Source: Clostridiales bacterium (GTDB lineage Bacteria; Bacillota; Clostridia; TANB77; CAG-508). Taken from it: a stretch of DNA of 64,000 bases. The stretch spans positions 68,285 through 132,284 of the forward strand of contig DNVW01000012.1 in assembly GCA_003507395.1 (NCBI GenBank), read 5' to 3'. Positions 1,784-2,365 of the stretch are shown one piece after another. Numbering within the stretch: the stretch's first letter is position 1; the number at the start of each line of letters is the position of its first letter. A program made the translations under genes and the position numbers. The notes under the pieces were generated by a model. The model was not told the origin of the DNA and searched no databases. It saw nothing but the letters and a program-made list of their open reading frames with translations.

Positions 1784-2365
1784 TTACTTTGCTCTCCTTA
1801 GCTGGTCTATTTTTTTATTTTTTCTTCTTTTTATGCTTTTCATTTTCATATCTCTATTAAATAAGAATAATAGTATAAGTATTATTACAATAAATATAGT
1901 TGTAACTTTTGATTCTAGTATTTTTATTACCAATCCTAATGATGGAATTCTTTTTACAAATTTTCCTTTTATCTGTTCATATTTTATTATTACATTATTA
2001 TTGTAATAATTGTTATCTCCCTTAGTTGTGTAATTCGATTTTTCTCCTAACCCTTGTATTTTAGTTATTCTTTGTACTTTTATTATTCCATTTTCATCAA
2101 ATATTATTATGTCTTCTAAATTCAAATCTTCTGGAGTACATTGCTTTGCTAATATTAAATCATTCGGCTTGATTGTTGGCAACATCGTTTTATCTTCTGC
2201 CACATATATTTTTGTTTCGCCTATTTGTAATTCTAATTTTTTATTAAATATGCCATATACTGTATTAATTACATTATATAAAATCATTAATATTAAGATT
2301 AATCCTAATATTTTTCTTGGCAATGCAAATATTATTTTTTTTACTTTATTTTCTCTTATCCTCAA
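1784..2365 (-). CDS. SipW-type signal peptidase paralog lacking catalytic Ser and His (pseudo-peptidase)
   Basis: It has the same topology as the upstream gene (N-terminal and C-terminal TM). KGDNN is conserved, but the SMEPT box reads TMLPT and the THRIV box reads VQRIT. It overlaps the upstream gene by 20 nt, so it probably uses a TTG start. Confidence 0.6.
   Translation of the reverse strand: MRIRENKVKKIIFALPRKILGLILILMILYNVINTVYGIFNKKLELQIGETKIYVAEDKTMLPTIKPNDLILAKQCTPEDLNLEDIIIFDENGIIKVQRITKIQGLGEKSNYTTKGDNNYYNNNVIIKYEQIKGKFVKRIPSLGLVIKILESKVTTIFIVIILILLFLFNRDMKMKSIKRRKNKKIDQLRRAK

Follow-up and report, generated by a model that had tools for sequence, protein, structure and literature searches.

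Signal peptidase homologs without catalytic residues are already known for the P-type, whereas an equivalent of the endoplasmic reticulum (ER) type, to which SipW and Sec11 belong, appears to be undescribed. Here we analyze a candidate for such a case, SipW', which is encoded by the second of two overlapping sipW-like genes in a 64,000-nucleotide (nt) stretch of contig DNVW01000012.1 from a Clostridiales bacterium (hereafter, the window). Throughout, SipW denotes the first, active copy of this pair and SipW' the second, and L and P numbers denote the loci and proteins of relatives.

The mitochondrial inner-membrane peptidase Imp1/Imp2 is a heterodimer of S26 paralogs that need each other for stability, are both active and act on distinct substrates. 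Bacterial and archaeal ER-type signal peptidases are not known to have accessory subunits and are thought to act alone. SipW of Bacillus subtilis has the triad S47/H87/D106 with spacings of 40 and 19 residues, all three of which are essential according to the mutagenesis of Tjalsma (2000) as summarized in PMC8767453, and its cytoplasmic tail has a function independent of peptidase activity (PMC8767453). Among P-type proteins, SipA (LepA) of Streptococcus pyogenes is without catalytic residues, keeps its peptide-binding cleft, has Asn in place of Gly272 of the Escherichia coli signal peptidase and is essential for pilus assembly (PMC4049620). SpsA of Staphylococcus aureus is an inactive paralog in which both catalytic residues are missing; its gene adjoins that of the active SpsB, and its role has long been unclear (PMC12414704).

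An earlier note on this DNA, made from the letters and their translations, had judged a SipW copy without catalytic residues to be new. For the ER/SipW type this view appears to hold, in that no description of an inactive SipW/Sec11-type paralog was found in the full-text literature (most subscription journals lie outside its coverage), but for signal peptidases at large it does not, because SipA and SpsA are dead P-type paralogs that were known before.

Catalytic center, predicted fold and evolution of SipW'

SipW and SipW' share 34% identity across 140 amino acids (aa; BLASTP, E = 6e-18). Against TIGR02228, the hidden Markov model (HMM) for archaeal/ER-type signal peptidase I (cutoff 51.85 bits), SipW scored 106.1 bits and SipW' 57.4 bits, the latter through residues 24–169 aligned to model positions 8–152. 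The bacterial P-type model TIGR02227 gave SipW' only 24.6 bits, which is below its cutoff of 47. SipW also matched Peptidase_S24/S26.

All boxes of SipW are canonical (NSMEPT, GD, THR and KGDNN), and those of SipW' read KTMLPT, ND, VQR and KGDNN. At the codon level, SipW has AGT for S65 (2744–2742) and CAC for H103 (2630–2628) in addition to D122, and SipW' has ACG for T60 (2188–2186), CAA for Q98 (2074–2072) and GAT for D117 (2017–2015), with identical nucleophile–base–Asp spacings of 38 and 19 residues in both proteins. Three independent alignments put Thr60 of SipW' at the position of the nucleophilic box-B Ser (Ser47 in B. subtilis SipW, Ser56 in SEC11A). Gln98 stands at the position of the general-base box-D His (His87 and His96, respectively), and the box-E Asp (Asp106 of B. 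subtilis SipW) is present as D117 within KGDNN. A phmmer alignment to human SEC11A (7P2P) matches T60 of SipW' to the Ser of SGSMEP, Q98 to the His of VHRV and KGDNN to the KGDNN of the human protein; when ~150 family representatives are aligned with MAFFT, T60, Q98 and D117 fall in the same catalytic columns. The replacement of Ser by Thr and of His by Gln beside a retained KGDNN, as reported in the earlier note, is therefore upheld by the agreement of BLASTP, MAFFT and SEC11A phmmer alignments and by the codons as read, and correct alignment brings neither Ser nor His into the catalytic columns of SipW'.

The AlphaFold2 (AF2) model of SipW' (predicted local distance difference test (pLDDT) 92.4, predicted template modeling score (pTM) 0.75) has helices at residues 3–40 and 153–192 that flank a β domain. 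Its predicted layout is that of an extracellular β domain between an N-terminal and a C-terminal transmembrane (TM) helix, the latter followed by a basic tail in the cytoplasm. The best Foldseek matches of this model in the PDB were SEC11C and SEC11A (7p2q and 7p2p, respectively; E ~1e-4, probability 1.00), and the third was SipA (4n31_A; E = 2.1e-4; TM-score 0.40 for the query and 0.53 for the target). The pairwise identity, the TIGR02228 score and the two model helices also agree with the earlier claim that the two proteins are paralogs throughout and share a two-TM topology. Judged from sequence and model together, SipW' is a true SipW/Sec11 (S26B) homolog that has kept its fold and is without the catalytic Ser and His. 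The public annotation of the protein is 'signal peptidase I', a heading under which it should not be filed given that two defining catalytic features are missing.

The exact 193-aa protein was found in 1,947 assembly-index blocks, on contigs of up to >1 Mb, and 65 of 65 full-length variants (95–100% identity) are 193 aa long, with T60, Q98 and D117 invariant and no truncation. In comparisons with L001 and L006, the two nearest species-level relatives (76–78% identity over aligned columns), the ratio of nonsynonymous to synonymous substitution rates (dN/dS, or omega) was 0.14–0.18 for SipW' and 0.17–0.21 for SipW, so that SipW' is under purifying selection. The low dN/dS, the 1,947 blocks and the 65 intact variants led us to reject the idea of a decaying pseudogene with frameshifts in other strains, which the earlier note had named as the outcome that would overturn its reading. 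Because the SipW' ortholog in L001 (80% identical) carries Ala in the nucleophile column, there is no need to invoke Thr60 as a substitute nucleophile.

Relatives' contexts were gathered by exact-protein look-ups and a scan of one genome per species, with analysis by open reading frames (ORFs), HMMs and BLAST. Based on column statistics over 26 SipW and 25 SipW' sequences, S65, M66, the box-C Asp, T93, H103, R104 and K-G-D-N are invariant in SipW. SipW' is variable exactly at the nucleophile (L, S, T, A, K), the base (N, Q, H, R, S, G), the box-C Asp and the box-E Gly and Asn; it keeps N31 (in the first TM helix, TM1), M61 (96%), I65 (84%), Y112, T114, K115 (100%), G134 and G144, and has conserved positions specific to its own clade at N68, Y120, K153 (within a QSK(I/V)TT motif) and L163. 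Constraint on SipW' is thus relaxed specifically at the catalytic center, with the structural core kept. Triads of other second copies include L/N/N, A/G/N, K/S/I, S/A/N and T/K/D, and in the first four of these a Ser–His dyad is impossible. The box-E Asp is lost in many other second copies (KSNQN, KYNQA), and the loss of the box-E Gly beside a missing base parallels SipA. The invariant Asn in TM1 of both copies was considered as a helix–helix contact and rejected as not diagnostic, being present also in 27 of 83 other SipW-like proteins.

In a neighbor-joining tree of 136 SipW-like ORFs from these loci, built without support values, SipW and SipW' form sister monophyletic clades with parallel internal topologies, and the SipW' branches are longer. 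Because the two clades are sisters with parallel topologies, the tree fits a single ancient tandem duplication of sipW within the operon, followed by co-inheritance. A profile search of 1.8 billion representatives gave roughly 10,000 family members and revealed that approximately half of the 150 best clusters are without the catalytic dyad; the dead form is therefore a large and diverse clade, not a peculiarity of this genome. Together with the 'signal peptidase I' label of SipW', this proportion indicates that a sizeable family clade is probably mis-annotated as enzymes.

Ser and His are both retained in the second copies of three loci, L007 (3427–4014), L008 (9977–10561) and L011 (2980–3567), which have the triads S/H/D or S/H/N (S/H/D in L008 and L011), Ser for the box-C Asp and Ala for the box-E Gly. 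All three loci are nested within the SipW' clade, so if the tree topology holds, His would have been lost at least twice, and these second copies may represent a still-active or intermediate stage. In the clusters P0091 and P0100, Ser in the nucleophile column is combined with Lys in the His column (S/K/D), a P-type-like dyad on an ER-type scaffold for which activity might be possible.

A conserved cassette and the possible role of SipW'

The gene pair belongs to a cassette that we found in 22 species-representative genomes of uncultured Clostridia and in several metagenome contigs. Its order is a ~520-aa cytoplasmic coiled-coil protein, a giant protein of 2,600–3,050 aa, SipW (S/H/D) and an overlapping SipW-like ORF. 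The ORFs of SipW and SipW' overlap in 22 of 22 species-level loci, and the pairing persists across divergence to ~30% identity. A homolog of the giant gene lies directly upstream in all 22 genomes with SipW', compared to only 4 of 58 single-SipW loci, which occur in other contexts such as arrays of ~200-aa TasA-like genes. Among the loci examined, SipW' is always coupled directly to SipW and never stands alone with the giant gene. A homolog of the window's 522-aa first gene precedes the giant gene wherever relatives' contigs extend that far, the giant gene is sometimes broken into two or three ORFs, and a convergent ~330-aa gene accompanies the cassette in about half of the lineages.

In the window, the TTG start of SipW' (2365–2363) overlaps the end of the sipW frame, stop codon included, by 20 nt, and the Shine-Dalgarno-like stretch GAGGAGAG lies at 2385–2378, inside sipW and ahead of this TTG. 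Overlap and Shine-Dalgarno-like stretch together suggest translational coupling of SipW' to SipW.

The giant protein is the only cassette member that bears a signal peptide, consisting of MRRLNKRK, a hydrophobic core of ~20 aa and S-R-A↓N-N (codons ~11013–10921). A site of the form S-(R/Q/K)-A↓(N/S/E) straight after the hydrophobic core is kept in all 17 full-length orthologs, and because this classical −3/−1 site is conserved, the protein is an obvious client of a signal peptidase. It contains a long (I/V)YGGG-type repeat region, and both LPXTG and a C-terminal TM segment are absent from its sequence. Conservation is highest in the C-terminal 1,000 residues (mean pairwise column identity 0.5–0.7), where the last strand, TGTYK(L/I)V.(K/E)LYDG..Y(I/V)GEAY(E/D)Y.I(I/V)(K/T), is nearly universal; it is lowest in residues 100–900 (0.2–0.3), and the N-terminal mature region is only moderately conserved. 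This conservation profile, which peaks in the C-terminal third, gives no indication of an N-terminal docking domain. It is plausible that these uncultured organisms use the giant protein as a major structure of their surface or for adhesion.

The cytoplasmic tail of SipW (residues ~173–196, 2346–2420) is almost invariant across 26 orthologs (EKxxxRREKKKIEDxxK; E180, K181, R185, R186, E187 and E192), and that of SipW' is far less conserved. From the conservation of the SipW tail we suspect a partner in the cytoplasm that is likewise conserved and might be the 522-aa or the 330-aa protein of the cassette.

Fusions of SipW-like units were seen in two settings. In L093/L094 (10001–12991), represented by two independent samples, an otherwise typical cassette contains a pseudo-SipW with the triad V/R/D (P0163, 996 aa), in which the SipW' cytoplasmic tail and a pilin-like third TM segment are followed by ~800 aa of Big_2/beta-helix-like repeats; the giant gene of this lineage is in three ORFs. 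In L095 (1515–3197), P0125 (560 aa) is a natural tandem fusion in which a long acidic linker in the cytoplasm connects two canonical SipW units, each of them S/H/D; this arrangement hints that SipW units may be able to work in pairs.

A separate case concerns L027 and L032, whose SipW copies are 97% identical and SipW' copies 64% identical. We rejected diversifying selection as the cause of this hypervariability, because the comparison is a recombination mosaic. Identity is 98–99% in a block (~6900–9990 in L027) made up of the last third of the giant gene, at its 3' end, and of sipW; the block stops at the sipW/sipW' junction, with flanks at 76–90%, background at 83–90% and sipW', only somewhat lower, at 72–78%. 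The pattern points to recent recombination inside the cassette.

For the window, the reading that we favor, with a probability of approximately 0.45 and in line with the role suggested in the earlier note, is that SipW' serves a signal peptidase dedicated to the giant protein as a partner or docking subunit without catalysis of its own. In this scheme, SipW would remove the signal peptide of the giant protein at its conserved S-x-A site, and SipW', made in step with SipW via the overlapping frames, would lie beside it in the membrane as the non-catalytic half of a dedicated two-subunit enzyme. There it would stabilize the catalytic subunit, or else grip the giant preprotein at its signal anchor and the beginning of its mature chain, without cutting it, during a long translocation. 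The Ser/His-retaining second copies of three species would reflect an ancestral stage with two active subunits, similar to Imp1/Imp2, and catalysis would then have been lost repeatedly because the scaffolding role alone was needed. The P0163 and P0125 fusions, the SipW tail and the tail function of B. subtilis SipW lend this partner role weak support.

Several observations weigh against a partner role. L029 (3407–4604) has no SipW', although the giant gene and an active SipW are present, and an unrelated cytoplasmic protein of 178 aa comes next; in L024 the SipW' gene (10404–10925) is without box B; and in L018 (7078–7660) it is broken into two ORFs (99 and 93 aa). Outside the window clade SipW' also evolves faster (omega 0.24–0.48, versus 0.07–0.35 for SipW). 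With this loss, the box-B deletion, the split ORF and the faster evolution, SipW' is under selection in most lineages, yet not universally indispensable. The parallel trees are expected from shared ancestry alone. Contact between SipW and SipW' is itself hypothesized from indirect hints (overlapping genes, sister clades and the P0125 fusion), and it is likewise from sequence that we infer cleavage of the giant protein by SipW itself. Moreover, M61 and I65 of SipW' are only presumed to be S1-pocket residues: Met91 and Leu95 of the E. coli signal peptidase (LepB) reportedly line that pocket, in work by Paetzel from 1998, and we take M61 and I65 to be their counterparts by homology. The conserved pairing of one active and one inactive copy, which the earlier note had suggested checking in related genomes, is borne out by 22 species genomes but not without exception, as three species keep Ser and His, L029 has lost the second copy and those of L024 and L018 are damaged.

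A bolder version of the partner role is possible, although we regard it as doubtful. SipW and SipW' would then form an obligate live/dead membrane heterodimer, that is, a bacterial multi-subunit ER-type signal peptidase derived from an Imp1/Imp2-like active pair and specialized for one giant surface protein. The dead subunit would clamp the signal anchor, the tails would dock the cytoplasmic coiled-coil proteins, and the whole would be an independently arisen analog of the eukaryotic complex.

Other roles place SipW' outside such a pair or deprive it of a positive function. It is conceivable, and in our view unlikely, that SipW' acts unpaired with SipW as a stand-alone chaperone or anchor similar to SipA, its cleft holding the giant or another surface protein at the membrane for assembly or tethering. 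SipA is its third-best structural match and, though catalytically empty, keeps a cleft and is essential in pilus assembly; M61 and I65 are kept in SipW'; the giant protein, with neither LPXTG nor a C-terminal TM segment, has no recognizable wall or membrane anchor; and in L093/L094 SipW' forms the membrane module at the N-terminus of a large surface protein. A stand-alone protein would not, however, be expected to be coupled to SipW in every locus and never be found alone with the giant gene. The retention of its cleft is, moreover, judged from two residues, M61 and I65, and the part of the giant protein that is most conserved is the C-terminal third and not the moderately conserved N-terminal mature region. 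The lack of another evident anchor could also be read in favor of a decoy or negative regulator that competes with SipW for the signal peptide, so that some of the giant protein stays anchored by an uncleaved signal anchor: its hydrophobic core of ~20 aa with a three-residue c-region resembles a signal anchor, and SipW' has kept a binding scaffold without catalysis. We consider this improbable, because it would be odd to encode, right behind an enzyme, a fixed inhibitor of that enzyme coupled to it in translation, the strict conservation of the S-x-A site suggests that cleavage matters, and a promoter and terminator scan found no regulatory signal between the two genes.

The two remaining alternatives are the least compatible with the data. 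As a functionless relic of the tandem duplication, carried along by its operon position and slowly vanishing, SipW' would account for its relaxed active site, its longer branches and omega above that of SipW in most clades, and the loss or damage in L029, L024 and L018. We give this little credence in view of a full-length two-TM ORF kept in at least 20 lineages diverged to ~30% identity, omega in the window clade no higher than that of the active enzyme, the absence of truncation among 65 variants, the exact sequence in 1,947 index blocks, and the clade's own conserved N68, Y120, K153 and L163. Less probable still is a peptidase with unconventional residues, for example Thr60 as nucleophile with some other base, acting on a second substrate or site. 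Some hydrolases do use Thr as their nucleophile, SipW' has retained D117 and K115, and certain second copies have S/H/D (L008, L011) or Ser with Lys (P0091, P0100); a His87-to-Lys mutant of B. subtilis SipW reportedly remained active in the work of Tjalsma and colleagues from 2000, so Ser/Lys variants might work. Gln98, however, is unable to serve as general base, Ala takes the place of Thr in the 80%-identical ortholog, the nucleophile column of most clade members is occupied by Leu, Ala, Lys, Met or Ile and their base column by Asn, Gly, Ser or Ala, and the cassette encodes a single protein with a signal peptide.

Operon layout and neighboring loci

The cassette features of the window are collected in Table 1. 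With a G+C content of ~27% and the housekeeping genes pflB, pflA and asnS close by, the window looks like a Clostridia-type chromosome, and the host is an uncultured low-GC Clostridia bacterium. A single promoter-like site (12932..12904) and a single terminator (1744..1714) flank the four genes on the minus strand. The promoter-like site, ~270 nt upstream of the 522-aa gene, agrees with the sigma-70 consensus at 12 of 12 positions, as no other site in the scanned region does; the terminator is the sole terminator-like site in 1500–3300 (0.4 expected by chance). From this layout, the 522-aa gene, the giant gene, sipW and sipW' are predicted to form one co-transcribed operon that ends at the terminator.

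Table 1. Coordinates of the gene pair, the remaining cassette members and associated signals in the window
Feature	Position	Strand	Remarks
Third SipW-like ORF, N-terminal 146 aa	3..440	-	Runs off the window; HMM match 31 bits; L/T/E at the Ser/His/Asp columns
Convergent 330-aa cytoplasmic protein	723..1715	+	Three-helix coiled-coil N-domain and small alpha/beta C-domain
Intrinsic terminator hairpin AAAAAAATGTGAACGCTGTTCACATTTTTTT, symmetric	1714..1744	.	Between the stop of sipW' and the stop of the convergent 330-aa gene
SipW', putative pseudo-signal-peptidase, ER-type paralog	1784..2365	-	193 aa, TTG start
sipW/sipW' gene junction	2346..2385	-	DNA read; 20-nt ORF overlap
SipW, active ER-type signal peptidase	2346..2936	-	196 aa, S65/H103/D122
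Spacer between giant gene and sipW, 148 nt	2937..3084	-	G+C-richer than surroundings; structured RNA
Giant secreted protein, presumed substrate	3085..11013	-	2,642 aa; from translation and signal peptide
First operon gene, 522-aa coiled-coil-rich protein	11064..12632	-	Without signal peptide or TM segment
Promoter-like site TTGACA-17-TATAAT, perfect 12/12	12904..12932	-	Candidate, from consensus scan only

The RNA fold of the spacer between the giant gene and sipW has a minimum free energy of −47.8 kcal/mol (z = −3.6), with a hairpin GGGUCAG...CUGACCC, and a 10/12 promoter-like site occurs in the same region (2964..2935). A scan of window positions 1–13500 against Rfam, spacer included, returned zero matches at E up to 0.1. 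The spacer could act in processing, stability or attenuation and so determine how much giant protein is made relative to the peptidases.

Pfam, NCBIfam and PDB sequence searches of the giant, 522-aa and 330-aa proteins gave no significant match. The 330-aa protein has 616 homologs, all unnamed. Its AF2 model, built from 36 homologs, reached a pLDDT of 82.6 and a pTM of 0.43, and Foldseek against the PDB yielded no fold match, only generic helical-bundle noise (best E 0.42).

The third SipW-like ORF, at the edge of the window, is more degenerate than SipW' and is the first gene of a neighboring TasA-like/SipW locus. The 77%-identity relative L006 has a full second locus (11936–20194), which opens with a degenerate SipW-like gene and an active SipW and continues with proteins of 208 aa (TasA-like in appearance), 314 aa and 329 aa, a 511-aa ATPase with the Walker-A sequence GTGKTS, a 367-aa protein, a SipW-like protein that has lost Asp (S/H/I) and a protein of 203 aa, again TasA-like. 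L006 therefore has five SipW paralogs in ~10 kb, two of which are without Ser/His. Second loci of a similar kind are present in L005, L008, L009, L033 and L047.

Comparison with known systems

With B. subtilis SipW and the ER-type enzymes in general (MEROPS S26B; Sec11; TIGR02228), SipW' shares family, fold, two-TM topology and box order, and its cassette resembles tapA-sipW-tasA in that a peptidase gene stands in an operon with a presumed secreted client. The B. subtilis protein, however, is a single enzyme with Ser and His, whereas SipW' is a second copy that overlaps a canonical SipW on its downstream side. The clients differ as well, with a ~2,600-aa protein of no known family in place of a TasA-like fiber subunit. 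More broadly, the analysis flags an uncharacterized export cassette in abundant gut Clostridia, composed of a giant beta-helix-like protein, two cytoplasmic proteins and a peptidase pair.

SipA is the nearest functional precedent for a signal-peptidase fold without catalytic residues that is encoded with large surface proteins, and the Gly next to the lost base is relaxed in SipA as it is in the SipW' clade. Unlike SipW', it is P-type (S26A, with an ancestral Ser/Lys dyad), has a single TM segment, belongs to a sortase–pilin (FCT) island and has no active paralog in its own operon; SipW' is ER-type, has two TM segments and is paired with SipW. No sortase or pilin families were recognized among the cassette proteins with Pfam and NCBIfam, in keeping with the absence of LPXTG from the giant protein. 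SpsA is closer in arrangement, as a dead paralog directly next to the gene of an active enzyme, but it is P-type, lies beside a housekeeping peptidase and is limited to a single genus, whereas the SipW' clade is diverse and tied to a giant client.

Pairs whose second copy retains Ser and His (L008, L011) can be modeled on the Imp1/Imp2 heterodimer, and so can the proposed ancestral state. Both subunits may be competent in these two loci, where the second copies are S/H/D but have Ser for the box-C Asp. Both Imp subunits are active, in contrast to the window pair, in which SipW' is predicted to be dead at T60/Q98 and the heterodimer is hypothesized. Second copies that retain both Ser and His, that are dead but conserved, that are degenerate or that have been lost provide a natural series for the evolution of a pseudoenzyme subunit. 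The eukaryotic complex (SEC11 with SPC22/23, SPC25 and SPC12) combines an ER-type catalytic subunit with obligatory non-catalytic membrane subunits. If the accessory role proposed for SipW' is true, the bacterial and archaeal ER-type enzymes would have in this coupled dead paralog a first candidate for an accessory subunit, and it would differ from its eukaryotic counterparts in origin, since the eukaryotic accessory subunits are not SEC11 paralogs.

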